Part shown: piece by piece, positions 14,638-39,324 of the stretch | How the letters are laid out: each line of letters begins with the position of its first letter | How positions within the stretch are numbered: the first letter of the stretch is position 1 | From: Owenia fusiformis | Lineage: Eukaryota | Assembly: GCA_903813345.2 (NCBI GenBank) | Contig: CAIIXF020000001.1 | Coordinates: 15,190,001-15,254,000 of the forward strand | Direction: 5' to 3' | Length of the DNA stretch: 64,000 nucleotides | The notes under the pieces: model-generated | Told to the model about the DNA's origin: nothing | The model's input: the letters and a program-made list of their open reading frames with translations, nothing else | Database searches by the model: none | Position numbers and translations under genes: made by a program

Positions 14638-14730
14638 GTAAGTATCGATCGAAAACAATGCACGATTGCCATCTTTTTATAAAGTAAACTCCTAAATACA
14701 TTTTCTATAATTGGATTTCATGATTTTAAG

Positions 14731-17029: not shown

Positions 17030-17665
17030 AGATCCAGAACCATTGCTATAGGGCTGATCCGTGCATGACCGTGATCTGGTGCAGATAAGACCTTATATTC
17101 AGGACCACTGGTATAGGGCTGCTCCATGCAAAACTGATCTGATGCAGGCGGGACCATACGTTCAGGACCACTGGTATAGGGCTGCTCCATGCAAAACTGA
17201 TCTGATGCAGGCGGGACCTTACGTTCAGGACCACTGGTATAGGGCTGCTCCATGCAAAACTGATCTGATGCAGGCGGGACCATACGTTCAGGACCACTGG
17301 TATAGGGCTGCTCCATGCAAAACTGATCTGATGCAGGCGGGACCTTACGTTCAGGACCACTGGTATAGGGCTGCTCCATGCAAAACTGATCTGATGCAGG
17401 CGGGACCATACGTTCAGGACCACTGGTATAGGGCTGCTCCATGCAAAACTGATCTGATGCAGGCGGGACCATACGTTCAGGACCACTGGTATAGGGCTGC
17501 TCCATGCAAAACTGATCTGATGTAGGCAGGACAATGCACATGTTCAGGACCACTGGAATATCGCTGCTCCACGCTCCATGCAAGACCATGATCGGGTGCA
17601 GGCTGGACCATACACATGTTCAGGACCACTGGTAGAAGACTGCTCCAAGCATGAAAATGATCAAG
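17030..17665. repeat. GC-richer 63-bp minisatellite, about 7 near-perfect units plus degenerate flanking units
   Basis: Unit caggaccactggtatagggctgctccatgcaaaactgatctgatgcaggcgggacc(a/t)tacgtt at 17100, 17163, 17226, 17289, 17352, 17415 and 17478. Confidence 0.97.
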
Positions 17666-17667
17666 TA

Positions 17668-18757
17668 CGAGGGGTGATCCAAAAGTCTTGGACGCCCTGC
17701 TCTAATTTTGTTGGTTTTTGATAAAATTACTTTAAACTTTCCAATAATAAAGACCAACAACCTAACTACTTTGTGTATTAATTTCATGGAGAAATGATAT
17801 GTTTTATGTAGTTTTCTAGATAGTTTTTAATATAGGGACCCTGCCACCCGGAACGGTATTCGCACATGGCAACTTTCAGCCGTAAATGTTGCCTCTATTT
17901 CACTTATTTCGCAAGTCTTGACCACTATATTTCTATGAATTTTGAATGTTAAACTATGTTAGTTTACTTCCTTTGTTAAAGGCAACCAATTAATTGTGTT
18001 TTAGTTATAATGTCACATATGACAATGGCCGTATATGTCAAATTCTAAGAAAATGACAGCAGACAAGCAACCCTCATTCTGGTATCATTTTCGCTGTAAG
18101 ATGGCTGCTGAAATGCAAAACATGAAAGAAATCAAAGTGGAACAAAGAATACTTCAAGATATTTTCACTATTATTGACCTTGAGCAGCTACCATATGCAC
18201 GATACAGTCTAGATATGGCTCCGTGTGATTTTCTTCCTTTTCTCCAGAAAAAGGAGGGCTGAAAGAAATTTTTCATTACTCGTTGTATGAGGTTTAGAGT
18301 GGCACTCCAGCAGCATTTGTATCACATAAGTAATGGCTGTTTCATAAATGTCTCCCATTCATTGGTAAAGCGGTATGAAAAATGTGTTCAAATTCGTGGA
18401 AAATATGCTGAAAAGTAGGTCTTAATATGTGAAGATGACGATGGCAGATGACACTCAGACTGAAAATTGGAAATTCTCTCATATCATGACTGGTGTTATG
18501 TTGTGCACCTGCACCTAATGTATTTGCCATATTATAACAGTTGTGACGTGATTTGCTATATTTAAATGCCGTTCCGGGTGGCAGGGACCCGGTATTAAAA
18601 AATATTTAGAAAAGTAGCTAAACTATATTATTTCCTGTTGAAACTTATTCACAAAGTTGTTAAGATGTTGATCTTTACTATCTGAAAGTTTCATGTAATT
18701 ATATTAGAAAAGAGCAAAGTTAGAGCGAGGCGTCCAAGACTTTTGGATCACCCCTCG
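17668..18757 (+). mobile_element. Mariner relic with long TIRs
   Basis: TA|cgaggggtgatccaaaagtcttggacgcc ... ggcgtccaagacttttggatcacccctcg|TA. Internal LPYARYSLDMAPCDFLPF resembles the mariner HPPYSPDLAPSDF.LF motif. Confidence 0.9.
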
Positions 18758-19280
18758 TACAGACGGCACTACTTGATCCTTTCAAAATGTGTGAAGTACT
18801 TAAAGGTTCTTGCAATGTCGTCCATTCTTGTTGAGCTTTGATAATTCTTCTTTAAATCTAGTAATTAGTAATTAATTTTAGTAAATGCTCAACATTTACA
18901 ATAATTAGACACAATTAACAGTTACTATTTCTAATTGCATTTTTACAGAGAAATGGTCGAACTTAATTGAAATAATTATTGCAAACTAAAAATGTGTACT
19001 CCATGTGCAGTCGACCGATGCGATTATCCAACACGCTTTAATGTCGAAGTGATTTCAACGTCTTAATCATGGTTATCTACCCCTATGTATAGAAAAATCA
19101 ATACAATTTCATTGACATCTGTTAATAATAGTGTTTATAATTATATTCATTTATACATTTGTATACAAGCTGAATAACATTGGTTTCAGAAATATAATTT
19201 TTGTTCATTTACACTGTTCAAATGTTCAAATACCTAATATTGCATAAGTCGACACTTTCAACACCTTCAACAAAATATCC

Positions 19281-20324
19281 TCATCCACGTATGCAGCACA
19301 AATGTTGCTTGAAGTATTTCCGCCATCGACTGTCCAACAGACAAAGTGCACATGGGTTAACACAAGAATTGAGAAACATAAGACAGAAGCCGGCAATCTT
19401 GAAGCCGTGCCAGTAAATATTGTACGGAGATGGGTCGAGATAGAACCAAAGAAGATAAATGTGTCTAGGGAGCCAACACATGACGAATAGGATGACGAGG
19501 CATAGGATCAGCCATGGACTTGTCCCTTCTTCAACAAACGCGAACCGTTGATTTTCATTTGTTGTGTGTTCGTCGTGTTTCAACTTATGTTCTGCTTCGT
19601 CAGAGCTACCAATGTCCATATACTGGCCTTGAAGTTCTTGAATGTCAAGAGTACGCTTGTATTTGGTTGCGATAAAGTAAGCTAGTCGTATATAAAACAA
19701 GGCAATAACAATTAGAGGCAGGGCGAATAGAATGAGGAAACTCACGATAGTATAGGCGCTAGCGTATCCTTCACCCCAACTATCTTGGAAAGGTAAACAG
19801 AAAGAAACATTAACGCCATCATTGGTGGTGTAGTCTTGAATATTAGCGCTGATGGCATTTAAGATCCCGAAAATGACAGCTATCAACCAGACACTTAATA
19901 TCTTGCCAATTGTCATTTTTGTTGAGTTGATAATCTTATATGTGTTCGATTGAACGGCTGTTGCGTATCTTTCTTCGCTCAACCATGCCAGAGTTAACAC
20001 AGATACGCTGACAGACAACACCCTCATGAAGTTTCCTAGCTTGCATATGGATTCACCAAAAGGCCAGCTATGGACTGTGTAAATTGTTGCAGCGAATGGA
20101 ACATACGTACAAATCAATAAAAGGTCTCCAATGGCCAGATTAACAAGGTACCAATTAGGTGTGTTGCGCATGTCTTGGTGTCGAACAACTATGTATAACA
20201 GCGTGGCGTTTCCAATCAGTCCAAGGATGAATATAATCAGGAACAGAATCGGCACAGTGACAGACTCGGGGGTCAATTGATAGCCACCAAGCGTGGTAAT
20301 GTTCATAGCACTCCTATTTTCCAT
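19281..20324 (-). CDS. Rhodopsin-class neuropeptide GPCR, CCHamide/excitatory-peptide (bombesin/GRP-related) receptor-like, 347 aa
   Basis: Seven TM segments. MRNTPNWYLVNLAIGDLL..VPF..TIYTVHSWPFG..ICK, SVSVLTL..LSEERY, CWLPRHIYLLWFY, YNIYWHGFKIAGFCLMFLNSCVNP.AL and a terminal CC all match CCHamide/EP receptor signatures. The splice acceptor tttccag| opens the exon at 20366. Confidence 0.92.
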   Translation of the reverse strand: MENRSAMNITTLGGYQLTPESVTVPILFLIIFILGLIGNATLLYIVVRHQDMRNTPNWYLVNLAIGDLLLICTYVPFAATIYTVHSWPFGESICKLGNFMRVLSVSVSVLTLAWLSEERYATAVQSNTYKIINSTKMTIGKILSVWLIAVIFGILNAISANIQDYTTNDGVNVSFCLPFQDSWGEGYASAYTIVSFLILFALPLIVIALFYIRLAYFIATKYKRTLDIQELQGQYMDIGSSDEAEHKLKHDEHTTNENQRFAFVEEGTSPWLILCLVILFVMCWLPRHIYLLWFYLDPSPYNIYWHGFKIAGFCLMFLNSCVNPCALCLLDSRWRKYFKQHLCCIRG

Positions 20325-21668
20325 TATACGAAATAGATTTCTTTATTGGCGCCAACAGAATAACACCTGGAAATGAAAAACAGTTATATTATCGTAACGA
20401 TTATATAATTGTATGACAAGCAAAATAATATTTTCAAAGTACAATTAGTTCTAGAAAATTAGTATGCAAAGTATTTTTAAGCTACATCTATAAGATTATC
20501 AAACCATCCAACACCTTCAAAAACTTTATCGACCTGACCTGACCTGACCCCGACTGATTGCGAAGTTTTTTCAAGATGTATTCCTTCGTTATCGCACAGT
20601 GTTTAATGGCTTGTCAACGCTTATCAAATTTAATTGCATGTTATTGAATACAATTTAACCTCTAGTTAAACATTGCCATGGTTGACATTTTAATTGCTTT
20701 AGTAATTGATTATTTACAATTGTAGTTTTTCGAAAAACACTACTAGTGTTTGGCATGCCAAGTGTTTATAGAAAGTCATGTCCATTGGTACGATAATTAG
20801 AGCATGTTTTGCTCTAAAGGATTGCTCTAAAGGATTTTAAACACTTATTGTGATATTGATCAATCAAAGGCAAAGGAGAAAAGTGGGCAATAATGGGAAC
20901 TAGACCTTAGTAGAGTCTTAGATGCCAAAACTGTCATGCAAAGAATAAATGTGTGATTATTAAAGTAACTACGAATATTGAACATGAATATATGTAAATG
21001 TAATTACTTTTAAATGTTTTTATTAATAAAAAAAGTCATAAAAATTATCCTTTAGTATGTCGATAAAATTGGTGAATGCAATAAAGTTGAAAACCATACG
21101 TCCCTTGTTATTCTCTCTTAGTAGAAAACACTATCAATGCAAAAATGGAAAAATATCATTTTTAGAGAATAAGTCCATAATTTTGAAAAATGGGATGTAG
21201 CGACTTTAACCCTGGATTATCTATTTTCTTTTCTTGCTTGGTGATTAAATAATGACGGACCCTCCACGAGACAACAAACGTCCCCATTATATGATAACTG
21301 CTAATGCCTGTTTTTGTTCCGGTTGCAAAACTTTTGGAGGGAAGTGTAGAATCGCTGCGCTGTATTGCTTTGTTCGATATGCCTGATCCCAAACTACAAA
21401 ATGGGTATCATAAATGATTGTATTTTCTAACATTGATCATCTTAAGTTTAGTTTAGCATATCATAGTGATTTTTCATATTGGGTCATTGTAATACCATTA
21501 ATTCTTATTCATAATCATAATTAATCACGAATAACTACTTTTCCATTTGCAAATAGACCATACCTGATAAATATGATTGATTAATCTACAATAATTTCGT
21601 ATTACGTATGGACTTCTATATAATTTATTACTATCAAACGTCAATTTGGTTCATATCATTTTGCATAC

Positions 21669-21900
21669 CTCTTTCTTCCGCAGATAAAGTTGAGCGTGCT
21701 GTTGTATTACATCGATATCGACCCTAATATTCCAGAAATCGGCGTTTACCTTGCTAATTGCCAGTAAGATGCGCCTTATCTCAACTGCCCGGTGTTGAGG
21801 CTGGCGGTGATATGAGCTTTGTTCGTGATTTAAGAATTTTAAAAGCAACGATGTCTGGAATGTTGTATTTCCAAGATGTGATTGCAGATTCAAGTAGAGT
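21669..21900 (-). other. Probable 5'-UTR exon of the GPCR
   Basis: Donor GAG|gtatgc after 21669 and a locally GC-richer block. Splicing to 20366 puts in-frame stops before the receptor ATG. The upstream boundary is unknown. Confidence 0.45.
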
Positions 21901-22861
21901 TCACTTTATTAATTATAAACATGTCTAACAACCCAAATAAAAGTGAAGTTTATTGACTTCTGTTATTTTCAGGCCCTTAAATTAATGTCAATGCAACTAG
22001 GTCTCTTATCTTTTTTTCTGTCTCCCACATCAAGTCACGTGATCTTATCTTTACACGCATATTATGACTAAATAAAAATAGCACTGGGGAATACAGTTGG
22101 AATGGAACATAGTTCTTCATTACTCAAATAAAGCCGAATATTTGGTTTTAAATATTTTCTCAAAGAAATACTCCGAAATTAAGCAACTCTAAGATTCCAT
22201 ACATAGGCAAGGACTGGCTGAACTGTGTTTGTCCCACCATCTGTCAACCCAAAACTACTGGACACATTTATCTTTTAATATTATCGAAGCTTGTGTAATG
22301 GGACTATGTATTTACCAGGCCCTAGCTGTTAAGATTGTTCTGGGGAATTTTATCAAATCGCAAATGAATAATTTCAATTACTGCTATCTAGAATGGAATG
22401 GAAAACACGAATTTAGTGCCATGGCGCCATAAGTCACTTTGCTTGAATAATGGTACCTCTCAATCATTCCCCTTTTAAGTCGACTTTGAAATCCATCTTA
22501 ATCATTATTATTAAGTTCCACTTGAAAAAAGTTAGACGTGTAATTTTTCTTTATATGAAACATTTCTTGTTCCCACGATAGATGAAAACTGAAAAACTCA
22601 GTAGAACCAGACACATGAAATAAAACTAAATTAAATATATGTTTTGAGCGAGTCCCTTTGAATTTTATCTGAGATTGAGCTTACAAGGCAATAATTTGTA
22701 TTTGAACGTCACAAATTGTCTAATTTTGCTATGATTGTGATTTTATCATATGATCTTTATTCCAATAGTCGGGCACTGGACGAAAGTGTTCAAACTCTTC
22801 AATGTCGATCTTTCCTGTGAGAAAATATTTATCTCTCGTTCAGATTCCACGCCCTGTAGAC

Positions 22862-23290
22862 AAGATGTTAGTAGAAATTATCTTGATTTACATCATTAAA
22901 TATTCAAAATTCAGTCAAAGTGATGTCATATTTGAAATCTACATGTAAAAGTACATCTATAAATATGGTTTAGAAAATTGTTTCATGATCAACTTTGAAA
23001 TTTGTTTTTTGAAAATGTGACTTCTAGTTCGGAGAGTTTCCCCATAGAACCCATGTTGTAAAACCACAAAAAGTGAAATATATTTTCTTGTATTGGACAG
23101 ATAACACTTTCTTTTGCTAGACATATTTTAATTTGCATAACTATTAGATACACAAGGGTGGTATGAAAATTGAACCACTAAAAGCAGGTGTACTTTAAGA
23201 TAAAGGGAACTTTCTACTATACCCGCCATGCTATCTAAACCGAACGAGCCACTGGGTGATGAAACTGGTAACTACTTGCTCACATCAGAG
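22862..23290. mobile_element. MITE family A, uninterrupted copy
   Basis: Termini like agatgcgagtag / ctactcgcatct. Homologous copies at about 28025-29186, 39325-39725 and 50527-52033. Confidence 0.8.
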
Positions 23291-23714
23291 TTATTGGTAC
23301 AGGTCCTTTGGTGAATAGGGAAGACGCTACTATAAGACTTCGTTTCATTGCTTACGCACGATTGTGGAATGGGCAGACTTAATTTCAGTTCATGAGCAGA
23401 AAGACTGTCGATAAGCGCAGATTAAATGATTACGTGGCCTTGTTAACATGCGTTTTATGTTTAATTTGTCATCCTGGATACATGGTTGTTAGCTTATAAC
23501 TAAAAGTATTTAGTCTATAGAATAGACATATGTACCATAATGAATGCAAATAACATTCATATGTTTTTACTCTATTCATTTATCTCTAACTTAATTACAC
23601 GCTCGGTGACACAATTATTGAAATTGAAAGGTACGGTGCGATAGGGAATCAAAATAGAACCTGATCAAGGTCACTGTCATTGTATCACACTCGTAAATCG
23701 CTGCTTTGTTTCTA

Positions 23715-24512
23715 TAACCCCCCTATCACACCAAACTAGTTCTTACCCGTTCTTGCCAGTCCTACGAAAACGTCGTAAAACGGGCTCAATCTGGCTGTGG
23801 TCGGGAAATATGTCTAAAATAATAGCTACTTCGTTCATAAACAGTCTTCAATACGTCCATCCCATTCGCAGTTCGTTCAGGTCGCACCACGTCGGTGTGC
23901 AACGTCGTATAACACGTCCCTTAGTCTAAAAGGTCATCATGATCTAATTACAGAACGGTATGGTCGCCATCGAATTTTGAATCGATTCAAAATTCTAAAT
24001 CACATTCCCCGTCCGGGAGAGTCCATGAACTTCGTAAACAGACCGTAGAACGTTGTAGCTTCGTTCATTCCGTTCGCACACAGTTTAAAACCAGTTTTGA
24101 AGAACGCAGTGGCAACTTGCTTGGTGTGATAGCTATATTTTTGCTAACTCGTTGATAAATACGTTCTTAATCAGTTTTTACGCGTTTGCAATTAGTTCTA
24201 CCTCGTTCTCGATACGTCCTCAGACAGTTCAAATCGTTGTTAAAACGTCCCTAGTCTATTGAAGTACGACGGTTCGGTTCGTAGTACGTCCAGCTCGCCG
24301 TTAGTAGGTTGTCACTCGTTCAAATTGTAGAACGTGACGACCAATAGAACATTTTGAGCATGTTCTAAGTTCTAAAGGACCTACCCGTTCGAGTACGTTC
24401 GATGAAGTTTGTAAATAGACCCCAAACGGTTCTAAGTACATCCAGTCCGTTCGTACACAGTTGAAGCCCGTTTTCGAGAACGTATTGAGAACTAGTTTGG
24501 TGTGATAGTAGG
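23715..24512. mobile_element. MITE, copy 2 of the 6312-7125 family
   Basis: Colinear, highly similar sequence with the same termini. Confidence 0.88.
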
Positions 24513-27500
24513 ATCAAGAGCAAGAGAGAAATATGAGCGATGTCTTATGTAAGCACTGTACGGTGCACGCACGTTAGATAATAGCGAAAGTACGGCACCA
24601 CGATTCACCTTTTATGAATCCATGAATACAGTTCAAAGGAGGTTGACTTACAAATTAGGTTCCATTCCGATCCGCTATCTTGGCATAATAGAATTTCTAT
24701 ATTTCAATTTATTTGAGAGTAAAACAGATGCTGAAACAAGTGTCAAAGGTATGGCAAATGATTTTAGACAGTTGAATCTTGTATGACCAGGATTTTTTCT
24801 CACCATGAATGCACAATTTCTCATCCAAATGGTTTCCTCCAAATGTTTATTAAAATCAAAGTTAAGGCAAGACTAGCCCAAACAACAGTTGGAAACACGT
24901 ACTAGACGATGGCTAGTGAATAACCCAAAAATAACTGACACGTTAACCCATTCTCACGACATAAAAACTTAATTACATCTAAATAGGTTATACATGTTTA
25001 AGAGATCTCCTTCAAAGATGTGATGATGAAATTGAAAGCCTTATTTGGACGATATCAAGTCTTTATGACCAAGTTTAGTCTGAAAACAACGGACCGCTTG
25101 GGGTTCCCCAATTGGAAAATAACATCTTTATCGCATTTCAATTCAATTTCCCCTTTCAGAAGTCACTGACATAGGGCAGAAAAAACAATTGATATGGTAA
25201 CAAGAAAAGGTCTTCTTTTAGAAAATAAGTCAATAAAAATGTGTCAAGATGGAGGTCATAAACAATGTCGACAAAAGGATTGATATTTTTATTAGCTTGA
25301 TAGCTTTACTTTAAAGAAGTCCCGAGCTTTCCATTAAGAAATTATAACTTGTTAATATTCAGTTCATAAATACTTATAGTAAATCTGTTCGGACAAAAGG
25401 TTGTAGTATTCCATCATTACGTGGGCCAATTTTGTCAAACTTTATCGGCCCGCCCTTTAGTTCTACTTCAGATGGTGTAGCTCTTAGTAATACCTATAAA
25501 AGCCTAAAGGTGATATCAATATTTAAACCAAATAGAAGGCATAGCCATTTAGTCCCCAGATACGTCAAGATCGGTAAGATTTATCTAAAGACGATTTGCG
25601 CTACCTGAATACGCAAATATTAAGTGGATCAGTTTTAATTGGTGTATCTAAGAATAGGGTTGTACAACAGCAGAAATCCAATCAAATTAGTAAGTGGATA
25701 ATAGAGATGAGAAACGGGACTTGAAATAAGCGTCTGTTTACGTCATTTAGATTAAAGGGTATGAAGTGGGTCTGGATTACAGCGCTTGAGTGGTCAGTTG
25801 AGAGGAACAAGCGATTGATGCCTCAGTAAATATCACGATGAACAAACAAATTGTAAGGCGAGCCCTGGGCCACAACGGATATCTGTAAATCATATCAATT
25901 TCAATTATTCATTGATTAATCGGAACATATTACAACAAATAGTTGCTTTGTATAAGAGTGATGGTACAAGTGGTAAGCAATTCAAACAAAAAGACACACA
26001 AGTGGAGACGCAGTTAAAAGTGTCCGACCTTTGTAGCTCTAGTTTGGACGGCTACTTGGACGGCGCGAACTTTCTCAACTTTAATTAGTATACGTTTAAG
26101 GGAATTGACTTACCTTGAGACCTGACTGCTGACTGCGACAATAATAATCGTTAGGGTTTCTATAAAAAGTAAAATCAGAAATTTGTAACATTGAAATATG
26201 AAACGTTATTGACAATATTCGTAACACTAAGAGAAGAATGTAAAGACACACATTACAAAATAGAAACATTTATGTAACTTTCTAGATGTGAGTAAATGGG
26301 AGAATATCCAAGACAAACATTATCTCGTGTAATGAAATGCTCAGAAAAGTAAAAACTGGATCATTATGTAAATATCTACACAGATCGTGTCAAATCAAAT
26401 ACAAGGAAACAAAAACTTGATAAAAGCACGGACGAGTTTTATATTTGGACTTACAAAAGGTCACGATAATTGATTGGAGTTCGTGGCCATTCACAAATAA
26501 CTCTTTACTAGAACTAATCTAGCGTCTCCTCCCATCAAAGTTGAAACAGTCGACGACAAATAGAGATTAAATTAAAAGTAACTTCATAAACCTGCTTCAG
26601 CTAGTGGACCATATCGGGGCCAGGTACGATGAAACGGGAAAGTAACCGTGTGTTTGTAGTACTGATGACGATGGTATATATTCTCACATGTATCCAGACT
26701 ATTGAAGCACGAAGTAAGTATTCTAGTGGGTGGTAATAGGGGCATGTCAGTATTCAAGAAAACTAATCGCGATCCGTACTTGAACCAACAAGAAAAATGC
26801 ATCTTATATAATGTCATTACTGGCGGGTTTTCAACCCTAATCTTAAAAATGTTGGTAATTAATTACACTTTGTCAAAACTGTATGAGGAAATGTGATAAT
26901 GATCGATAAAAGACTAGCTAAGTGACGTGAGTACTTCGGTAAAAATCTTCAAATTATAAGTTAAATTCTTAGCACTTATTTATATTTGACATTCTATGGG
27001 CCGGATATAACATTAAAAATATTGACAGTATTTGTCTAGTTTACTGTAATAGCAAAATTTGGATTTAAATACAATTTTGGAGTACTTGGTTCGAAAGTCA
27101 AATTCGTTTGTTAGGTGTGTTTTGAGAAATGCAAAATAATTACTGTAGATACCTAAAGAAAATCATTAAATAAATGTAAGTTCACAAAGTATAATATGGT
27201 ATGTTGTGTACATTTACCTTCATGCTATGGTTGCGTACAATATCATATTATTGTCTTCTTTGAAGTTTTACCTGGCCATTGTGTTTACGGAACATGTTAT
27301 CGTAACAATTTACAATAAAAACGAGAGTATGGCTTGATCCTTCCCACCCCTTCAAAAAGAAAGTGTTGATAAATGATTTTCGTCGTGGATAATAAGATCT
27401 CATGACTGATGAAATCCATGTCAAGCAGAAAAAATGCACCCCTTGTCCCCCTACCCTAACGTTCTTGTAATAATTCAATCGATATTATGATAGTTCCTTT

Positions 27501-27560
27501 CTAAATAAATGCCATCCTCTTCACTCTTCACTGAAAAATAAGGTAAAAGCAGGAAGTGTA

Positions 27561-27817
27561 CACCGTTGCTCAAATATCTGGAATATTGAGCACGACACAA
27601 AAATCAGCACACAAATCTGAACTGTAACAATTACAAAGAAATAATTGTTTGAAAGTATGCAAAAATAATTATCCTAAAACGTTAATTAGTCACTCTGAAA
27701 ATAATGTGAATTCAAAAATATCCATTCTTTAAAATTTGAGAGCGCATTGCAGCACATTGAAATTGAGGAAATCAATGGTAAATATTGGAAAACATTCTAT
27801 ATATATGAGCAACGGTG
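27561..27817. mobile_element. Short Tc1-like MITE
   Basis: TA|caccgttgctca ... tgagcaacggtg|TA. Confidence 0.7.
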
Positions 27818-28024
27818 TATTGCTGGGCAATTCATCGCAATTATGATTTATGGATGACTCTTATTACATAAACGCTTAGCAACAAAGTGAAGCGATAAAA
27901 CCTGTTGATCTTTTCAATTTTACATAAATATCTATTCTGAGCTGTCAGTTACGTTAATCTAAGATATACCATTTCTCAGAATTAATGCAATTTTTGGAAA
28001 TACAAATTCATTACTTCTGGATTA

Positions 28025-29186
28025 CGATTATCTTTGCAACTTTTGAACGTCATTAAAAATTCTAAATTCAGCCAAAGTGATATCAAAGGAATGGTATCGA
28101 TATGGTGAACTTTTTGAACACACGTTTCTCTTAAACCAGTCATAAGAAAAATCTAAAAATTCGACATATCGTCAATTTAATGGTCATCCTTTGAATGGCA
28201 ACAATATAATTTGAAATATATATAATATATATACTTTCATCTATATTGTTTTAGAAAACACATCAAACACTTTGTTCTTGGTATCATGTTTCCAGAGTGA
28301 AATGAAACATCTTTCCGAACCTCATTGGAACAAAACGACATAAACACAACATGTTTAGGTCTCTCAATATTGTAATTGTACAAAGGAAATTTTGGTTGAT
28401 TTAAAAAAAAGTATCTTGTTAATGAAATAAAAGGGTTATCTTGATTTTATCTATTTTGGGGGATTTTGTTTTAATTTTTGAATACTTTTTTAAAATCAAC
28501 CAAAAAATTTCTTTGTATAACTATAATATTGAGAGGTCTAAAAACATGTTTTATATGCTATTTTGTTCCAACAAGGTTCGGAAAGACATTTTATTTCCCA
28601 AGAATTGGTAGAAAGGAGCAAGCAAAAAACAATTGCACTAAAAAACAAAAAATGTTAACAAAAACAGTTATCTAAAATATTTCTAAATAATTTTCGCATT
28701 AAATTGTTGTCAATCAGTCAACATTACATAAAATACTGTGTCTTTTTACAGAATGTTTTCAATAATTGGTTTAAGAGAAAAACATTGTTGAATTCAGTTC
28801 ACCATATCGAAACCTATCTTTCAAGTCTACATGTAAAAATTACTTCTAGAAATGTAGTTTTAAAAAGTGTTTATCAACTTTGAAAATATAACTATAACTA
28901 TAAATATAAAATAAAATGTGACTTTGAGGTCGGGGAGATTCCCCTCCCCTATAGACTCCATGTTATAAAATAACAAAAAGTGAAGTATATTTTCTTATAT
29001 TGGGCTAACAAATTATTTTCTTTTACTATTCATATTTTAATTTGTATAACTACCAGATAGAAGGGTTATATGAGAATTGGACCACTAAAACCGATGAATA
29101 TTCAAGTTTAAGGGAACTTTCTAATACCCTACCACCCGGAATTGCCAACCACTGGTGAAAATGGTAACTATCTACTCGCACCTGGG
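28025..29186. mobile_element. MITE A copy interrupted by MITE B (28085-28821)
   Basis: A-family aaattcagccaaagtgatatc breaks at 28085 and resumes as aagtctacatgtaaaa after the MITE B TIR at 28821. Confidence 0.8.
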
Positions 29187-30160
29187 TAATTTGGGTACCT
29201 TTTATAGCGATCGATATATCTATTAGATTGTTGAAACTGTTTTTTTATAAAAAGTTGTTTCAATTAACTCTAGCTATTTATAAGCTTTCATATGGTACAT
29301 AACGTCTAAGGGATGCTACTTAGGATAGACGGTTGATTGAAGCTGTCATTATGAAACACCGTGTACATCGGTTTGAATCGAGTTCATAGTTCACCGAAGT
29401 TTGGAAGTATGCTAATATACATGTATAACACTGGTATGCTTGAACGTCTTCTGGACCGTACCCGTGCTGTGTAGCATACTTCCAAACTACGTTGAACTTT
29501 GAACTCGATTCAAGATTTTCACTTAGACCATGATCAAGTCTTGTGTTTTGGAATTTTTTGTTTTGAAATAAGACCAAAGCGATTCAAAATGTGAAGTGAA
29601 CAAAAGAATGTCACCCGGCAAAACAGTTAGACGTTTTTACACAATTCCTGAAATTAGGGTCGAAGAGATTTCTTTTATACACGTCGCACTAAACTTGGGA
29701 CAATAAGCGTAACATTATGGCGTCAAAATACCAAAGCAAAACAATGAGCAGTATAGGGCGCAAACACCCTTACAACGTCAAAAACGACGAGCGTCACATT
29801 TTTTCAAGTTTAATCAACCCAAAAAGAAAATACTTTATCCTTATTTAATCATGATAAACTTCACTGATTAGCAAGATCTCGAGGACAATATTTCTAAAAT
29901 GTTTTTGATTTTTGAAAAACGGTCAAGAAATCCACTTGGGGCGTTAGTAAAAATTGATATGTATTGAATTTGTGGTAAAAATCGATGCGTCACTTTTTTC
30001 ACGTTTCGAAAATCAGCGCCGTAACAATATTGTGCAGTTAATTTTTTTTCAAATCAGACCTAAATTAGTTCTAAGGTAAAATCAAGGTAAACGGATTGCT
30101 CGTCCCCTTCGCCTTCAAAACCTTACACAATTTTGAAAATGTTAAAAGCGTTCATATTAA

Positions 30161-30626
30161 GCCCGGTATACACCAATGGGGCAAACCCACTTGCCCCATC
30201 GAGTCCCATCTTGCCCCATCGAATCCCAATTTGCCCCATCGAATCCCACGAAGTCCCATGTGACCTTCATGACTTTGCCCCATCGTGCCCCATGGTGTCC
30301 CATCAAGCCCCATGGAGTCCCATCAAATCCCACCGTGCCCCATTGGTGTATGTCGGGCTTCACACAACACGTCATATGATCGAAAATCCCACGATGCCCC
30401 ATGGAAAGAATAAACATGTTCATTCTCGATGGGACTCCATCGAGTCCCACCGAGTCCCACGTGGGATTTCATGGGACCCCGTGGGACTCGATGGGGCAAG
30501 AGGGGCAAAATCCCACGAAGTCCCTAAAGGTCCCACGAGGTCCCACGCAATGTTATACATAGTATAACAAAGTCACGGTATTAAGTCTATGGAGGTCCCA
30601 ACTTGCCCCATTGGTGTATACCGGGC
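30161..30626. mobile_element. GC-rich MITE (Harbinger-like termini) with internal ccccat/gtcccac short repeats
   Basis: TIR gcccggtatacaccaatggggcaa / ttgccccattggtgtataccgggc. The overlapping ORFs here are repeat artefacts. Confidence 0.85.
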
Positions 30627-33600
30627 AATTGTGACGTCATAAATGCACATGCTCCATTGAATAAAATGTGAACTTTTTGTGGGATTCTGATCATTATTTC
30701 AAAAGTTGTCTCAATTTCAACGTCTTACAACATATTTGACGATGTTGGGGTATATTTAACTTTAAATATATGGTAGATCCAATCAAACTTTTCAAGGAAA
30801 AACAAATTCACTAAAATGCGAATAAAAAATCCTTCAAAATGATATATAAAACACATAGTTAGTTTTTCAAATAAGGCAGAGATTAACGCTTAAAGCTGAG
30901 CTTTGCTGGAGATCGACCCTGTGATTGATCCAGAAAATCAATTTAGGGAGAAAAGGTCCAACTAACTGTTGCCACTTCGCTTCAATCAACTCTTTAGACA
31001 ATGTTTTTCAGACAAAAAGTTATAAAGGACTTTTTTTAACTTCTTTTTGTGGAGTAGTATTGTATACGTTTGGTTTTGAATTTGCTAGTCACATAAGATC
31101 ACAATAAATTCATCTTGTTGATTGGCTAATCGTATTGTCTTTGAGAGTCTCTCATAACTGAATTAGCTGCTTATTATGATGACACAGAATATGTAAGTAG
31201 CTGTATTTGATAATAAATCAGATCCGATAATTAGCTATTAGTAAGTTTTCGTGAAAAAGTACTCGCAGGAACCAATTAGCTACATCCTCCAATACAGAGT
31301 GGGCCAAACATTGGTTTAACTTCACAAACGTTTTCCAGGATTATGGTATACTTTAATACTATTCATTTGGCTCTAAATGCTGTAACGTAATCAGTCCCTT
31401 TAAACTGATGACCTAAAATGGCGGCATAAATTCACATCTTCTAACATTACTTGCTTCTTAAACCCCACTTAGGTAGCAACACAATAGAATGAGGTGTGAT
31501 TTATTTTAAATAATGTCATGTTGTATCAAAAGGAAAGTACATTCTTTGTCCATGTTTTTAAAGAATGGACACTTAGCGAGCTATCAAAAACCAATGTGGC
31601 ACAAAAGACGATTGACTGCAGTGCACAAAAGCTAAACTATCCACTCATTCAATAGTTGAATACTAGTAAACACAGGAAATCAAATTTTTAACTGTTACAT
31701 GCAGTGCACTGGAGATACACCATCTCACTTGTCAACAGTCACACTCTTACCTCATAGTCATTGCAAAATAAATACAGTTTTCTTAAGATTGAATTATAAG
31801 CCATTTAGCTTTCACAATAGTATGTGTGGGGTTTAAGTTATTTAAACCATTCGTATTGGGCCTTTGGAGAACTAACAGCCTCGGCCTGGTGGCATCGGCT
31901 ATTATTCTAAAACCCAAGTTTCAAATATTACCAGTTTAGAGATTTATAAATTAGCAAATCCCATGAGAAAGAAATTATTAATAAAAGATATACATGTATG
32001 TACAGGGACTAATTTTGTTTCACTAGGCGATGATATGTATTTCAACACCAGTTCCTTTAAGAATGTTAGAATCCATCGATCACTAAAGTCCAAAGCATGT
32101 TTATCGCCCAAAACCACAATGGAACTTCAGATAAAACATAGATAAATCAAGTACATTTTATTCCTTCACAATCAACAGGGATAAGGTTCTAGCAAATAAG
32201 TGTCTGAATCTGCGTCAGTGACACTAAAGATATGACTTGTTTGAAATATCAGGCGTTTTGTGTTGATAAAAGAACACAACAAAGTACCATCCAGTAGGAA
32301 ATTAATTTAATTAATGCAACCGATCTTTCACTTCATGGATTATATTAGTCCTCTGACCAGATGCTACCACGGTAAATGATGTTGAAATTGTGACAATTGT
32401 TCTCTAGAGGAGGGCAATATATCGACTTATCTGGTAGACCGGATATCGTATAACAGTGAATGATCAAAAACAAGTATACTTAATCCAATCAACATTTCAA
32501 AAAATTAGTTTAATTTTATTTATCGATCCACCAAAACAGATCACTCAACTCAGATCTTTTGTCATGTCAGAGAAAATAACCTTCTCATCCCAATTCTCCA
32601 TGGGTTTATATAATTTGTGGGTAATCTTTATTTTTGTTTGAAGTTCAATAACGCTTGGAGTAAAATCTATTTAAAACGGCCCTAGCGACACTGCTCTAAA
32701 ATGTATGTTCTCTCTCCTCACTTTTAAAAATTTTGTAACTTGTTTATGTTTACACATTTCCATCATAACTCCTGAAGTATTTGTGAGACCTCGAGTCCTT
32801 TTTGGTCCTTTTTGCATTTTTTTGTCCGCTATAGGGGATCAGTTCAATCAGATTTCCTGATTTTCTTCCACCCCACTACCTCCAGAAAGCCTAGTAGGTA
32901 CTTTCCGCAATTCTTAAAAGGTCGCATGAACCGTGACAGGCCTACTCAATAAATTCAAGGTTGATAAATTACATCCTTCACTAATTCACTAAATAAATTA
33001 TATTGACTGAGTAATGTGACATATCACTTACGTATCTCTGTTGTCGCAGACTTATTGTATCATTTACGAACAAATCAAATCAAATTATATCTTTCATTAA
33101 TGAAAAAATCATGCCAATTTCAAAGGCAACACTAAATCACTATCAGAGATGAATTTGAAGATTGACACGATTCATCTTAAATGGATTATGAATCATTTAC
33201 CTTTCATAAGACCAGTGTGGGTTCTAAGTAATATAAACCATGTGTACTAGCTGCTAGGAGATCTAATGGCCTCTGGCCAACGGCCCTCGATAAATATTTC
33301 ACCTAGCCAGTACTCATGGTTTATACATTACATAATACCCGCTCTTTTCTGATAGCATTCTGCCTTGAATCATGTATCATAAAGACAGTGTAGTTTCGTT
33401 AGGACCTTCCATATTTTTTTCGACTATCATTTTGCTTTATTAATTAAATACAAATATATTAATGAAATTGCGTTCCATAAATAAGATGAATCTGTGGTTT
33501 ATTAGAATCATATAGATGCCATAGTTAATGAACGTATGAACACAACGACTCTAGAGTCGCTTATTGTTTGAACAAATTATTAATCTTTTTCGAATTATAG

Positions 33601-34628
33601 AAATGTTCATATCACCTTACCTTCTTTTGAGGCCACTATATCGTGCCCTTCGTCTAAAGATAAATCCCTATGTTTTTACTCTGCCGGGTGTGAGTCATGT
33701 CGCTTTATACGGGTCATATCGTAATCATAAAATTTGAAATAAAATTTTCGCCATTTTTCCACATCACAATTTGAATTGCGAGTTTTGGTCTTATTACCTG
33801 ACCAAAAATTCCAAAACACACGTGAAGTAATCAATATATTAGTTCATATCTTCTGGATTGCTAATTTAGAATTTACAGCCAGTTACTATTAATGTCAGAC
33901 GTTAGCGACATTTAGTCCAATTTTCGAATATCGCCATTTTTCTTGGAGCCGTTTGTTTTAATTTTAAACGAAATCCTGACGAAATCATGCAATATCTCAT
34001 CATGGAGCCCAGCCAGTTCCATTTCAATTCATGAAATATTAACATGACCGTTAGAATATATTACTTAAAATTGAACCCCGACTAGAAATTTTACAATAGT
34101 TCATGGTGACCCAGATGGAATTACCTAGGCCAAGAATTGTCTAGAGACTGGAATAAATGTCACCAACTTGCATCTGTGATGCGATGTTGTGTTGCGTAAT
34201 ATTTTTGATATATCCATATTTTGACGAGTAAGGCATAAGTTCAAGTAAGAGAGGGTTGCATGGCGAATCAGATGACATATATTGTTTTGTCTGTTTTTCT
34301 TTTTCTTAATCACTTCCCTCTCTCCTTCTGAGATTCTTTTCAGCAACTACATAAAACGTCTTATTCAATGCTAATTATATGGTTAGTTATAATATGAGAA
34401 CTAGTTGGTAAGAATGAAATTATGTTATTTGTATCTAGATCAACGGTCAAAATCTAGGTCAGATCTTATATTTTTATAATATATTTTGTCAAGTATCGCA
34501 ACAGATTTCGGACAGTCATATGTTGGATTTTGACTATTTTCTGAGGATTTAAACAGGTACATACCTGTTAGAGCAATGTATTACCTCCAGGAAAAGCACT
34601 CCTGGAGATGATAGAATAATTTCGACTA

Positions 34629-35060
34629 TGAGACAGGGAAGATGCAAACAACCTACCCACATTTTTTTCTGAAATGTTTTCCTGATTTGCAACCCCTTCC
34701 ACCCCTGCTTTTTTAATTTTTCTTGCATCAATATGTTGTGTTTTGACACACAGTTAACTCCTTTAAGGAATAAGTGATTCATTTTAGATAAAGTGGAAAA
34801 CAATATTTCCCACGTTATTTTCCCATAGGGAAAACTCATGCGAACCATTGCTTTCAGCTAATTTTGGTCACCCATTTGGATATCTTTTAAACCCCCAAAG
34901 GAATCACTTATTCATTTAAATGTGTTAACTGTGTGTTGTGTGTCAAAACACAACATATTGATACAAGAAAAATTAGAAAAGCAGGGGTGGAAGGGGTTGA
35001 AAATCACGAAAACATTTCAGAAACACATGTGGGTGGGTCGTTTGCATCTTCCCTGTCTCA
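34629..35060. mobile_element. MITE with about 130-170-bp imperfect TIRs
   Basis: tgagacagggaagatgcaaac...tgttgtgttttgacacacagttaac, with its reverse complement ending tttgcatcttccctgtctca at 35060. Confidence 0.85.
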
Positions 35061-35364
35061 AATTCAAATTTCAAAATGCGATATGTTCCGTAAGATTTTA
35101 ACCTTCTGAGAGCGTTGTTTCTTCAGTGGGATTTTAACCTTCTTCCAAAATGTTAGAGGGCGTTGTCCTCCGTAAGGTTGAGCTCTCAAATGACGTTGTT
35201 CTCAGCGAGATTCTAACCTTCAGATGGAGTTGTATTAAGTAAGAATGAAACCCTAAGAAGGCGTTTTCCGCTGAGATTTTTGCTCCTGTAAATTCCTAAC
35301 AAACCATTTTTTACCTCAGTGATTTAAGTTATTTTATCAAATATCAAATATCTTGTTTTTGCAG

Positions 35365-35406
35365 GAAAGTGTGTGGGGAAGTGGGCAATACATGCTTGTG
35401 GAGGAG
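35365..35406 (+). CDS. Excitatory peptide (EP/GGNG; CCHamide orthologue) precursor, peptide-coding micro-exon
   Basis: tcttgtttttgcag|GA AAG TGT GTG GGG AAG TGG GCA ATA CAT GCT TGT GGA GGA G|gtgagt, which reads xKCVGKWAIHACGG(G). This matches the annelid/mollusc EP motif KCxGxWAIHACxGGN. Both splice sites are canonical. The signal-peptide exon was not located. Confidence 0.93.
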
Positions 35407-35613
35407 GTGAGTTAAATAACAAGTATCTCAAGAGTATTCTAATCTTCATCAATTAACGTTGCATTCGTAGCTTTCTGTGAAAAATGAAACACAGTTAAAA
35501 AATATGATGTAGTTAAAGAAGAAATATATGTACTGTACATGTAATTATCATTTACAATAACATTTATTGCAAAAATTTTAGAATATATTTTGTCATAATA
35601 TAGGACCAGTATA

Positions 35614-37659
35614 CAGGGTGTCTCAAAAATAGGGTGTACCCAAAAGTATATCAACAGCACAGATAAACCAATCAATATTTTCAGACATTTTTTGCATGGT
35701 CATGTAGCCAAAACATGAAAGTTTCCTCCCCAATACACCATTTTTATTTCAGTCTTGCCTTTTTGATGCTGTATCCTTACTGCTACATTGTTCATCACAT
35801 TTGATAATAATTCCGGTGGAATGTTTTGGATTTCTCTTTGGATGTTGCCCTTAAGTTGTTATAGGTCTTTTTGCTTGGAATGAGTGTTAAAACACTCCTT
35901 AGAATAGTCACAGAGAAAGATGTTTGAGGATGACGATGGCAGAACAAACACAGAGAATCAGGTCTATGGTGTTTAAACTGCTTCTTTATTCGGTACATTA
36001 AATATTCCATAAATACCAAATAAAACAAACAATTTACCAAACCTTTACCCAATCTATCAAATGTTTTTTATTTTATCGATGTAATAATCTATACAATTTA
36101 TATTCGCTAAATCGTTTCACTTGTTCTTTGTGTTTGCATTTACATTTGATATTTATACAAAGTGTACATGTATTTGTGTGATGCAGCGAATCTATTTGTT
36201 TTCCTCAACGCACGTATGATTTAATTAATTATTTGTACATTCGGTATTTACATTATTTATATTCGGTAAATACCGAATGACACATTCGATAATTTCGTTA
36301 TTATTCGATACTTTACGAGACTTTCAGTCACGTGATATATTTGAACAATGTAGAATAGCTGCGCGGCTTGCAAATCTCGATGTCATGTGACAAAATATCG
36401 AACAACAACGAAAGTTATCGAATATTACTTTATTGCATATCGGTAAATAGCAAATTAGCTTTCGGTAAATGCATCAACTATGTCATAGAAAAATAAACCA
36501 TTTGGTAAATATAGGCAAACTTATTTCGGTAGGGTTCAAATAGAAATTCAATATTGTGCCTATAATACCGAATGGAAAAATGATTTAGCGAATATTAATA
36601 TTTCCTATACAGAATATATTTGAATTTAATGAATAAAGAAGCAAAAATAATGCCATACGGGTCAATTATCGGCAAATGATTCCAGAGTTACGCAGGCTAG
36701 CGTGGAGACCATATGATATCCAAATGAATGTTGTGTGTCTCAAATTGATACACACAACAAAGGCTACACAACAATAGCCTGACTACGGTAAAGTCCGATA
36801 CCGTTGTCACAAATGGCGGACACAACCATCGCTTCAACTGTTTAATCACTTGGTCCTCATTTCATGGGATTTTATCGTCGCTAATTCTGTGCATGCATTA
36901 AGCTTTTGTGATAATGTATCATATGAAATCCCATTTTCGATCAAATTGGGTCGTGAATTGCTACAATATATCGTCTTCGATATCGTCAATGACAACGGAA
37001 TCTGAATTTGAGTTTAGAAAGACAACGGCATTGTCCGTTGTCCCGTATCTCATTTTGATCGGTTAAATTAAAGACTTTATTTCGATGGTAGAACGTTATT
37101 AACTGCACAATGAGTATTAAGACACTTTGATATAGTCTAGGTGCTCTATTAAACATACAGTTCGTGAAAATCTAATTGAAGTTACGGTTATATCCGCCAT
37201 TTGTGACAACGGTGGCTATTCCGGGGTGACACTAGAATCCCAACCAATGCAATTTCTTGAATGTCTGACCTCTCTGTATAAGGGGGGTATAAGACATTGT
37301 GAGGGCCTCCCTATTCACCAGATTTGACGGCCCATACTTTTTCTCTGGGGCTATTCGAAGGACCATTTTTATGCTAAACCCAAGCTAAGAGACCTAGAAT
37401 AACTTAAGGCCAGTATCTGAACAGATATCAAAACATTCCACCAGAAATATCAAAAGTGATGAACAATAGTAGTAAGGATGCAGACTATCATCGAAATATG
37501 AGGTTACATTGAATATGTGGTGTAAAGGGTAACGGGTAACCTGAATTAAAAACTGCGTATAAGGGAAAAACTTTCATGTTTTGTCTACAAGACCATGCAA
37601 AAAATCTATGTCTGTCTATGCCGTTGATATACTTTTTGGTACATTTTTGAAACACCCTA
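35614..37659. mobile_element. Tc1/mariner-derived element (family of 739-1719) with two nested MITEs (about 35965-36657 and 36800-37213)
   Basis: TA|cagggtgtctcaaaaat ... atttttgaaacaccct. A PYSPDLT-like relic lies near 37310. Nested TIRs are tgcttctttattc/gaataaagaagca and accgttgtcacaaatggcgga/tccgccatttgtgacaacggt. Confidence 0.8.
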
Positions 37660-37705
37660 TATAATCATTAATCTATTTGTTAGAGTTTTACTTGGTGTTT
37701 TCTAG

Positions 37706-38025
37706 GCAATGGAAAGAGATCCTCAAATGACGCAATTCAGACTCCACAAGTCACAGACCTTGAAGATGATAAATTCGACAATGTTGTGGTTGACCCTATG
37801 CATGATAGCAAAACTGAAAAATACTACATTGATAATGCAGAAACGATTGAGAAATTGTGGATTATTATGATGCGAAATAAACCTAACAGCATCATGCGGA
37901 GATTGTTAGCTGTCCTCATTAGAGAACTGGTTGAAACGGGGGAGCAACCGGTAGATGACCAGAGAGTTATGAGCGATCAACTTAAGACACCTGGTCCTAG
38001 CAAAACAGCTTCCAAGTATACATAA
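37706..38025 (+). CDS. EP/GGNG precursor, last coding exon (..GN-GKR plus C-terminal associated peptide)
   Basis: ttttctag|GC AAT GGA AAG AGA completes G-N-G-K-R (amidation glycine plus dibasic cleavage site). Phase 1 matches the micro-exon. In frame with ORF 37786-38025. Confidence 0.9.
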
Positions 38026-39324
38026 TGAAATGTAATCGTCTTAAGTATTTATGGAGCTGAAGGTTATGGTTTGGTTTGTCTTTTAAGCTGTCACGTCACA
38101 GTGACCTTGACATTACTCCTGATTTTTGATGATAGGCCTGTGGATTGCAGACAGTGAGATGTATGGCGACCGTTTTCTTTTGTGTCGGACAATTTTATTT
38201 TTGTTTTCTGGCACAGATAGGATGAGAAGGAATTGATATTGAATTTAAACCTATAATGGAATTTTTCTGCAACTTTATAAACGAGAGGATTGGACTTGTA
38301 AATATATGAGTAGATATTTCAGCAGACCATTGGATAATAGAAACACTAATAATAAGTGATAGAAAGACTTTATCGGAAGAATTCCCAGTTGGAAAGCAAG
38401 AGAACGATCGATTCACCACCAACACGTGGCAATCCATGGCCACTGCACATGATTTAGAGTGTCTTCTTTCGCAAATATACCAAATTAGGAGTAGATTAGT
38501 TCAGTTCACAACAAATTAAGTAAATTAACAGAAAGTAGCTGGGACAATATTACATTTTCCTCAAGCTTTGATGAAATCTAGAAAACAGGTGCATTTCTTT
38601 TACTTGTTTTGTGAAATAAGATAGGAAGAAAGGATAATGAAATAAAAGTAACTTGATTGTCCATTAATAAATCAATACATACATGTATACCGTACATTAT
38701 GTAATAAGCATATACATATAGAGGAGCCTCTAAAAGGGATATTCCTTGCCAGACAATTGATTTTCTGATATTGTCGCTCTTACTAGTATAAATATATCAA
38801 AAATATTTTAAAGGGTTGTCAACGTCAACTTGAAATGAAAAAGATTAGATTATCTGGAGAATTAAATCATAAACAAAATTGACAAAGAATATTTAGCTGT
38901 TTTTCCTTCTTATGCCTCCTTACCTAATGGTATATGGTTACTGATCTCTAGTTTTTTCAATGTTCCATATATGTTCCATATTCCTGTATATATATAGGGC
39001 ATCATACCCTGAAAGTATGAAATTGTATGGTTTCAATCATCAAAAGTTATGAGCATTTCATGACGAAGCACAGAAAGTTTTGGACCAGAGGGTATACAAA
39101 GTTGAGAATCGATGACATCACTTTCTGTGTGTAATCTTAAAAGGTGGCAGCTTACTTGAAATGAGCACTACATTTTTAAATAATCCCTATTGTCCATCAA
39201 AACATGCATTTTTCATTTTTGCCAAACATACTGTAGAAACTATATATGGCCATTGCTACCTTATATAATTAGGAGAACTGGTCTCGCAGGGAATATTCCT
39301 TAGAGCACCAATACAATCAATAGA

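Follow-up and report, generated by a model that had tools for sequence, protein, structure and literature searches.

In animals, neuropeptide genes and the genes of their receptors are normally unlinked. To our knowledge, this holds in Drosophila for the genes of the CCHamides and of their receptors and in vertebrates for those of GRP, NMB, endothelin, and the corresponding receptors. A 64-kb stretch of the Owenia fusiformis genome (hereafter, the window) raises the question of whether a peptide gene and its receptor gene are neighbors here and, if so, what that adjacency means. A first-pass annotation of this DNA had described a hidden exon for an EP/GGNG (CCHamide-type) peptide beside a G protein-coupled receptor (GPCR) gene. 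Our analysis supports the view that the peptide gene adjoins the gene of its receptor type (Table 1).

Table 1 Features of the peptide gene, the receptor gene, and the spacer between them, in window positions
Feature	Position	Strand	Evidence
GPCR coding sequence (P0003), 347 aa, intronless	19284-20324	-	ORF; stop codon 19281-19283
GPCR transcript as assembled	18757-20368	-	X1 contigs 18757-19601 (depth 15) and 19608-20368 (depth 22.1)
Spacer between assembled 5' ends	20369-25759		5391 bases; depth table, contig ends, ORF lists
EP exon 1	25760-26713	+	X1 joint 26713>35365 (exact); 25760-26713 covered by contig record 5
EP micro-exon (42 nt)	35365-35406	+	Sequence; motif unique in window; both joints in X1
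EP exon 3, coding part	37706-38025	+	Sequence and X1 joint; TAA 38023-38025
EP 3' UTR	38026-38599 and beyond	+	X1 record 8: length 1362, letters 29-924 on 37704-38599

The hidden exon is part of a transcribed EP/GGNG (CCHamide-type) precursor gene, an identification supported by the sequence together with the RNA contigs of one run (X1). The gene has three exons on the forward strand, and their coding parts (85 + 42 + 320 = 447 nt) form an in-frame, 148-codon reading frame with a single stop at its end. Exon 1 carries a 5' UTR of ~869 nt, an in-frame stop at 26602, an ATG at 26629, and then 28 codons plus one base up to the donor GAA/gtaagt; its product is the predicted signal peptide MKRESNRVFVVLMTMVYILTCIQTIEAR. 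This exon, missing from the first-pass annotation, was predicted from the sequence first, as the top-scoring candidate in a scan for an ATG, a hydrophobic stretch, and a phase-1 donor, and was afterwards matched exactly by an X1 joint. The micro-exon (...tttttgcag/GAAAG...GGAGGAG/gtgagt) lies between two phase-1 introns and encodes (R)KCVGKWAIHACGG, the peptide core. Its motif, C.G.W..H.C, occurs only there when all 64 kb of the window are translated in six frames, so that no second, alternative peptide exon was found by this motif. Exon 3 begins behind the acceptor ...ttttctag/GCAATGGAAAGAGA; it completes Gly-Asn, adds the next Gly (amide donor) and Lys-Arg (cleavage site), and continues in an open frame through a 101-residue C-terminal part. 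Because X1 record 8 has 438 letters past 38599, the RNA would end near 39037, and the region contains AATAAA at 38641 and 38666 and ATTAAA at 38861.

Both joints are present in X1. The first (GT..AG, depth 288.5) skips 8651 bases, and its short side of 42 letters is the entire micro-exon. The second (35404>37704, GT..AG, depth 438.5) skips 2299 bases, and a cut two places rightward fits equally well and gives 35406>37706, which is the in-phase splice that the first-pass annotation had proposed. Since unique intron and intergenic bins had a depth of 0 to 3 in X1, this run behaves as RNA. Each joint was seen in one contig of this one run, and the raw RNA-seq runs X17-X19 (6-12% sampled) yielded no joint reads and zero depth on both genes, as would be expected if the joints came from misassembled contigs or another organism's reads and the micro-exon were a chance motif. 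We consider such an artefact highly improbable: both joints are exact, fall at the predicted bases, and keep the frame; the introns are silent against exon depths of 288-438; and the X1 contigs show 3-5 differences per kilobase from the window. In addition, exon 3 words were present in sixteen runs of five studies, and the peptide motif is unique in the window.

The encoded precursor closely resembles known members of the EP/CCHamide family, in agreement with the first-pass assignment. PMC6617912 gives the EP/GGNG layout as a signal peptide, one peptide copy, cysteines, and GGN-Gly-Lys-Arg, and PMC12969411 names as the family criterion a pair of cysteines separated by eight residues. In the window gene, the predicted signal peptide (judged by hydrophobicity alone, with charge at its start, 15 residues of hydrophobic core, and then ...IEA) is followed by Arg-Arg and then a single peptide copy, in which the two Cys are eight residues apart (C-VGKWAIHA-C); GG/GN-G-KR spans the second joint and provides GGN, the Gly amide donor, and the basic cleavage site. 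According to PMC12969411, the Aplysia californica apEP/CCHa precursor shares this order of signal peptide, single copy, Cys spacing, and GGN-Gly-dibasic end, its coding sequence is similar in size (426 bp vs. 447 nt here), and its peptide, KCHGRWAIHACFGGN-NH2, is identical to ours at 12 of 15 residues, differing at positions 3, 5, and 12. That text gives no exon structure or receptor linkage for Aplysia ("intron," "exon," and "synten" do not occur in it).

Two further features set the window precursor apart from that of Aplysia. One is the Arg-Arg that follows the predicted signal peptide and precedes Lys-Cys, a position at which insect CCHamide-2 also has a dibasic site (PMC5627052). The other is the C-terminal part, which has no detectable similarity to anything: the exon 3 product had no Pfam family and no homologue in the protein collection, and its Atlas model reached a pLDDT of 0.44. 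Lineus longissimus EP1/EP2 share the peptide family and precursor layout, and PMC6617912 describes two Lineus splice variants with different peptide N-termini, which fits an intron directly before the Lys-Cys start, as here. Unlike in Lineus, a second peptide exon is lacking from the window. During processing, the signal peptide would be removed and the precursor cleaved behind Arg-Arg and at Gly-Lys-Arg; trailing basic residues would then be trimmed, the Gly converted to a C-terminal amide, and the loop closed by a disulfide. This would yield cyclic KCVGKWAIHACGGGN-amide as the mature peptide.

The neighboring GPCR gene is also transcribed, with a 44-nt 5' UTR and a 3' UTR of ~0.5 kb that runs into a repeat at 18757. 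Upstream of it, bins 20601-22601 had a depth of 0 to 0.5 in X1. An additional 5' exon of this gene may be represented by a contig of depth 3 at 21235-21385. The protein is a rhodopsin-type seven-helix receptor (Pfam 7tm_1, PF00001, residues 37-324, E 3.7e-45). Its closest solved structures are NMBR, GRPR, BRS3, and ETB (E 4e-38 to 2e-37), with ETB scoring like NMBR in this PDB search, and an Atlas structure search placed a "CCHamide-1 receptor-like" cluster at first rank (TM 0.83). All four named proteins among 13 matches to the GPCR were arthropod CCHamide-1 receptors.

To place the receptor, we relied on a careful tree of 45 rows, in which the protostome EP/CCHamide receptors formed a 38-row clade split from fish NMBR and Ptychodera bombesin-receptor-like rows (99/96). 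Inside it, the GPCR fell into a 17-row clade with the Aplysia protein P0057 (XP_005098643.1, apEP/CCHaR2) at a support of 98/95. The same grouping was recovered in a 70-row tree (SH-aLRT 94, with a 62-row EP/CCHamide clade at SH-aLRT 97) and a 119-row FastTree tree (97), all of these trees being without named endothelin or elevenin receptors (none under those names among 30 nameable proteins) and without the Lineus EP receptor and Platynereis AKQ63032.1. This supports the GPCR as a member of the EP/CCHamide receptor family and of its type-2 (apEP/CCHaR2-like) clade, and the first-pass description of an EP/CCHamide receptor-like protein stands, as the GPCR grouped inside rather than outside that family.

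The motifs point the same way. Type-2 rows had Glu-Arg or Asp-Arg at TM3 in 21 of 21 cases (19 Glu, 2 Asp) and Asp behind NPxxxY in 18 of 21; type-1-like rows had Asp-Arg in all four shown at TM3 and Ser behind NPxxxY in nine of nine. The GPCR has ERY and the Asp, sharing the ERY-type TM3 motif, the Asp, and the class A fold with apEP/CCHaR2 and the "CCHamide-1 receptor-like" proteins of its clade, and it also keeps CWLP and NP. It differs in type from the Lineus and Platynereis (AKQ63032.1) EP receptors, which PMC12969411 places with type-1 receptors. In our careful tree, the type-2 clade joins other spiralian receptors (92/91), whereas in PMC12969411 it joins arthropod receptors.

By orthology with the Aplysia pair of EP and apEP/CCHaR2, the window peptide most likely has the GPCR among its receptors. 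As reported in PMC12969411, EP activated apEP/CCHaR2 with an EC50 of 28 nM when a promiscuous G-alpha-q-type protein was co-transfected, and both tested types of Aplysia receptor responded to this peptide. Still, the window receptor is divergent. Among 1.8 billion representatives, its nearest relatives reach only 39-41% identity; in the tree, its end branch is long (1.43); compared with apEP/CCHaR2 and the molluscan, nemertean, and brachiopod members of its clade, it is only 32-39% identical and shorter (347 vs. 370-584 aa). In addition, the NPxxxY tyrosine is replaced by Cys, and the C-terminal tail is very short, with 32 residues from the start of the NPxxxY segment (residue 316) to the C-terminus vs. 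46 to 60+ in the other type-2 rows shown. Together with the intronless coding part, these traits could mark a divergent paralogue that has lost its role as an EP receptor, whether orphaned or retuned to another ligand, so that the resemblance between the two neighbors would be coincidental.

We find that outcome quite unlikely, as the reading frame is intact and transcribed, ERY, CWLP, and NP are retained, and the RNA sample differs from the assembly by one synonymous and one conservative change (V47A). The NPxxxY-tyrosine position is also Cys in a Lingula relative (P0031) and in P0069 and is occupied by other residues elsewhere in the clade, so the Cys is not a lone defect. Relatives on two metagenome contigs (L002 and L003) likewise gave contiguous, apparently intronless matches, and the response of both Aplysia receptor types to EP makes a loss of this ligand less plausible.

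The two genes diverge from a spacer in which, as the first-pass annotation had noted, no other coding gene is recognizable: it holds only short ORFs and repeat-derived sequence. A dispersed repeat at ~22602-24602, heavily covered on both strands in all four runs, includes the ORF 23645-23926, which has a look-alike at 6227-6502 in the window. The 15-kb distance first given for the pair is correct from the GPCR ATG to the micro-exon (15.0 kb) but not for the head-to-head distance, which is ~5.4 kb when measured from one assembled 5' end (20368) to the other (25760); these are contig ends, and the true transcription starts could lie closer together or further apart. Bidirectional-promoter pairs are usually defined by starts within roughly 1 kb on opposite strands. 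The present pair resembles them in its divergent orientation and lack of intervening coding sequence, but its 5' ends are 5391 bases apart. This distance, combined with the repeat insertion, argues against a classical shared bidirectional promoter.

What, then, does the adjacency mean? On balance, we slightly favor the view that these are two ordinary transcribed genes of one signaling system lying head to head, with an adjacency that is neutral or restricted to this lineage rather than a maintained cassette, and we lean toward the absence of functional coupling. A doubtful alternative is that selection keeps the pair together for a shared regulatory landscape, or that EP and the type-2 receptor were already linked in ancient spiralians. 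Co-expression could then be driven by enhancers located within the spacer (5.4 kb) or the first intron (8.7 kb), for example, as part of a feedback or autocrine loop within EP neurons or endocrine cells of the gut. The divergent arrangement with no gene between and the cognate relationship by orthology would fit such a cassette, and both transcripts were present in X1 and both absent from X17-X19, which also counts against neutral adjacency. Adjacency by chance would also be rare: by rough arithmetic, which was not calculated on this genome, the probability of a cognate receptor as immediate neighbor is ~2 in 10,000 per pair and ~1e-2 per genome over all peptide systems.

However, the linkage is seen in one genome only, and the agreement in expression comes from four runs of two studies with tissues unstated, in which EP depth was ~15-20 times the receptor's in X1. 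Moreover, a shared core promoter would not stretch over so long a spacer, which carries the repeat insertion as well, and the parts of the literature covered by our search contained no report of linked ligand-receptor genes for EP/CCHamide or any other neuropeptide system. An EP-type exon was present in none of nine short metagenome loci with a related receptor, but these hold at most 5 kb of receptor-upstream sequence, too little to speak for or against linkage. The full form of the cassette, in which EP and the type-2 receptor are an evolutionarily maintained head-to-head unit with a shared regulatory domain and linked or autocrine expression, seems unlikely to us. If true, it would be the first genomic ligand-receptor linkage described for a bilaterian neuropeptide system, as far as the literature searched shows, and it might date from the time when the type-2 receptor arose in Spiralia.

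Neutral or lineage-restricted adjacency remains our preferred reading. Both genes add new members to known families, and their proximity is a testable curiosity. Were the head-to-head arrangement conserved, it would suggest shared regulation; as a coincidence in a single species, it would have no further consequence. The peptide gene itself was invisible to an ORF-based reading, because a 42-nt exon, separated from the exons on either side by 8.7 kb and 2.3 kb, carries the active core. Such genes can be recovered by combining peptide motif and splice logic and then confirming them with public RNA contigs. The GPCR is a divergent addition to the newly recognized second (apEP/CCHaR2-like) receptor type. 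Because the type-2 clade in our tree also includes nemertean and brachiopod sequences, this type appears not to be a molluscan peculiarity, and the receptor sequences suggest that the two EP/CCHamide receptor types were present in early spiralians, if not before.

The micro-exon of the excitatory peptide (EP) gene, 42 bases on the plus strand, is preceded by a polypyrimidine tract and cag and followed by gtgagt, and a second acceptor, ttttctag, opens exon 3. Read across this joint, the translation gives (x)KCVGKWAIHACGG-G-N-G-K-R, the same product that the first-pass annotation had proposed. Across the 64-kb window, translated in six frames, the micro-exon holds the only occurrence of the motif C.G.W..H.C, and the motif search found within the window no second, alternative peptide exon of the kind that Lineus splice variants suggest. 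In EP precursors, the peptide comes immediately after the signal peptide (available text of PMC6617912); we therefore searched 20300-35364 for an ATG with a hydrophobic stretch after it and then a phase-1 GT donor. The top candidate by hydrophobicity encodes MKRESNRVFVVLMTMVYILTCIQTIEAR and ends in GAA before the donor gtaagt; a longer reading of the same ATG scored an equal 2.94, and the consensus donor decided the choice. Its last base and the GA of the micro-exon form an Arg codon; therefore, x stands for Arg, and Arg-Arg comes before the peptide. The coding parts sum to 447 nt with one stop, at the end, and the same frame has a stop 27 nt upstream of the ATG. The exon 3 product returned three candidates, none significant, in a protein search, a best and meaningless score of 0.76 in an Atlas search, and no family in Pfam.

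Sixteen runs from five studies contained exon 3, none of them on record as RNA. We compared 18600-38599 with one of these as contigs (X1) and with three raw RNA-seq runs under the same species label (X17-X19). Unique intron and intergenic bins in X1 had a depth of 0 to 3, and this run is therefore RNA in practice. One X1 joint, 26713>35365, is flanked by GT..AG, skips 8651 bases at a depth of 288.5, and has the complete 42 letters as its short side, confirming to the base the signal-peptide exon predicted from sequence, for which the first-pass annotation had called for a search. The other, 35404>37704 or, equally placed two bases on, 35406>37706, is again GT..AG and skips 2299 bases at a depth of 438.5, and thus the junction claimed earlier between micro-exon and exon 3 is present in transcripts. 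The receptor is also transcribed, as two unspliced X1 contigs; between these and the assembly, the coding part shows one synonymous and one Val-to-Ala change. X17-X19 had no reads on either gene, which says little because 6-12% of each run was read and the tissues are unknown; statements on breadth of expression are limited accordingly. The 5' leader of the peptide mRNA spans 869 nt and has 12 upstream ATGs. These may be upstream ORFs exerting translational control, or the 5' part of the contig may not be the main start.

The receptor ORF encodes a 347-residue protein with a rhodopsin-type domain (E 3.7e-45), and its best solved relatives were NMBR, GRPR, BRS3, and ETB (E 4e-38 to 2e-37). A word-index search gave 13 matches at E <= 1e-20, and the four family-named ones near the query were arthropod CCHamide-1 receptors, 35-38% identical. 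An exhaustive search gave 125 representatives at E <= 1e-30, the best of them (P0016) 41% identical. We assigned names to 30 relatives, including proteins from Tubulanus (a nemertean), Lingula (two paralogues), Haliotis, Pomacea, Sinanodonta, Patella, Liolophura, Elysia, and Lymnaea, as well as fish NMBR and a Ptychodera bombesin-receptor-like protein. The key anchor was Aplysia XP_005098643.1 (P0057). This is apEP/CCHaR2, one of two receptor types in molluscs, and Aplysia EP activates it with an EC50 of 28 nM in the presence of a co-transfected promiscuous G-alpha-q-type protein (available text of PMC12969411). A protein search with a 20-sequence alignment returned at least 14 matches, and the Aplysia R1, Platynereis, and Lineus receptors were not among the matches listed. 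Because these receptors were not brought in, "type-1" is a presumptive label for the Patella/Elysia/Liolophura clade. A retrogene origin of the intronless receptor was dropped as uninformative, as relatives on genomic metagenome contigs match uninterrupted too.

All three trees placed the query with apEP/CCHaR2. This clade (type-2) held 19 rows with a support of 97 in a FastTree analysis of 119 full-length rows (320-620 aa, of 163), and 21 rows with an SH-aLRT of 94 in a quick IQ-TREE of 70 rows, where the split of EP/CCHamide from bombesin-type receptors (62 rows) had an SH-aLRT of 97. In a careful IQ-TREE (LG+C20), its 45 rows were hand-picked to represent the FastTree clades, leaving out fragments, the majority of arthropod rows, and several small clades without names; the query clade had 17 rows (98/95) and the EP/CCHamide clade 38 (99/96). 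The family resemblance noted from sequence thus held up in phylogeny. Within type-2, the careful tree left a polytomy of the query, Lingula P0031, two unnamed proteins (P0016 and P0018), a nemertean pair, and a mollusc group. The clade includes nemertean (Tubulanus) and brachiopod (Lingula) sequences, and a second Lingula member sits just outside. In this tree, type-2 joins other spiralian receptors (92/91) and not arthropod CCHamide receptors, and the topology in the available text of PMC12969411 differs.

Two sequence markers agree with the trees. The TM3 motif is Glu-Arg in 19 and Asp-Arg in 2 of 21 type-2 rows, vs. Asp-Arg in the 4 Patella/Liolophura-type rows shown, and the residue behind NPxxxY is Asp in 18/21 type-2 rows and Ser in 9/9 Patella/Liolophura-type rows. 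The NPxxxY tyrosine, retained in most relatives, is Cys in the query. This is clade variability rather than a lone defect, because Lingula P0031 and another relative (P0069) share the Cys, and Leu or Phe occurs in others. The receptor chain stops 16 residues past the Asp behind NPxxxY, far short of its relatives' tails. The short tail and the Cys, at the C-terminus and residue 328, may bear on G-protein coupling or desensitization.

Positions of features in the window (X1, contig run behaving as RNA)
Feature	Position	Strand	Description
Acyltransferase exon	14711-15160	+	coding-looking; FR47/GNAT-type
Tandem array	17026-17619		unit about 63 nt
Receptor contigs (X1)	18757-19601; 19608-20368		depth 15; depth 22.1
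Receptor ORF	19284-20324	-	C-terminus, 19284-19340
Lone X1 contig	21235-21385		151 nt, depth 3
Dispersed repeats	22602-24602; 27938-29271; 33900-37300		in spacer and both peptide-gene introns; both strands covered in all four runs, many loose ends
Look-alike ORFs	6227-6502; 61593-61865		resemble 23645-23926 and 28426-28675, respectively
Peptide 5' leader	25760-26628	+	
Signal-peptide coding part	26629-26713	+	X1 contig record 5, 25760-26713
Micro-exon	35365-35406	+	
Exon 3	from 37706	+	frame open until TAA 38023-38025; X1 contig record 8, 37704-38599 plus 438 letters further
539-codon ORF	43288-44904	+	coding-looking; no Pfam family
Fragment	47177-47458	+	coding-looking; weak RasGEF match below Pfam cut-off
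461-codon ORF	56027-57409	-	coding-looking; YHYH domain
Reverse-transcriptase fragment	62962-63369	-	coding-looking

The assembled 5' ends of the receptor (20368) and the peptide gene (25760) are separated by 5391 bases instead of the 15 kb estimated earlier, too distant for a shared core promoter and close enough for shared enhancers. As first described, no other gene is recognizable between them, and the spacer contains a dispersed repeat. The lone X1 contig in the otherwise silent spacer could be an upstream non-coding receptor exon, or noise. Elsewhere, the tandem array reads as a 21-residue repeat, ...PPASDQFCMEQPYTSGPERMV..., with several frames open on both strands. Its Pfam match to a CCK-A receptor N-terminus was spurious, with no significant stretches.

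The original observation is confirmed and extended to a three-exon gene with both joints in RNA beside a transcribed receptor. Gene structure, RNA joints, and receptor trees together support the description of an EP ligand beside an EP/CCHamide-type receptor; by orthology with the Aplysia pair, the peptide acting on the adjoining receptor is a candidate pairing. The only indication of co-regulation is that both RNAs occur in X1 and neither in X17-X19. Related receptors were also sought in metagenomes, together with flanks of 10 kb; the 202 pattern matches yielded nine loci of 1.1-12.4 kb, reaching at most about 5 kb upstream. None of the nine had an EP-type motif, a result too short in reach to inform on linkage. 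The available text of the literature searched, including PMC6617912, PMC12969411, PMC4244043, PMC8557429, and PMC5627052, says nothing about how the EP gene is built or whether it is linked to a receptor gene, and the words intron, exon, and synteny are absent from the first two. Assuming about 25,000 genes, two immediate neighbors, and two or three family receptors, we roughly estimate, rather than compute, that a given ligand and receptor type adjoin by chance in about 2 in 10,000 cases, and that over some 60 peptide systems such a pair arises about once in 100 genomes. The pair therefore merits a synteny check. Still, we consider it unlikely that the two genes form a maintained cassette, because the pair comes from one genome and we know of no precedent for ligand-receptor gene pairing in well-studied animals. 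Both genes belong to known families, and the way they are arranged is a moderately interesting curiosity, so far unreported.
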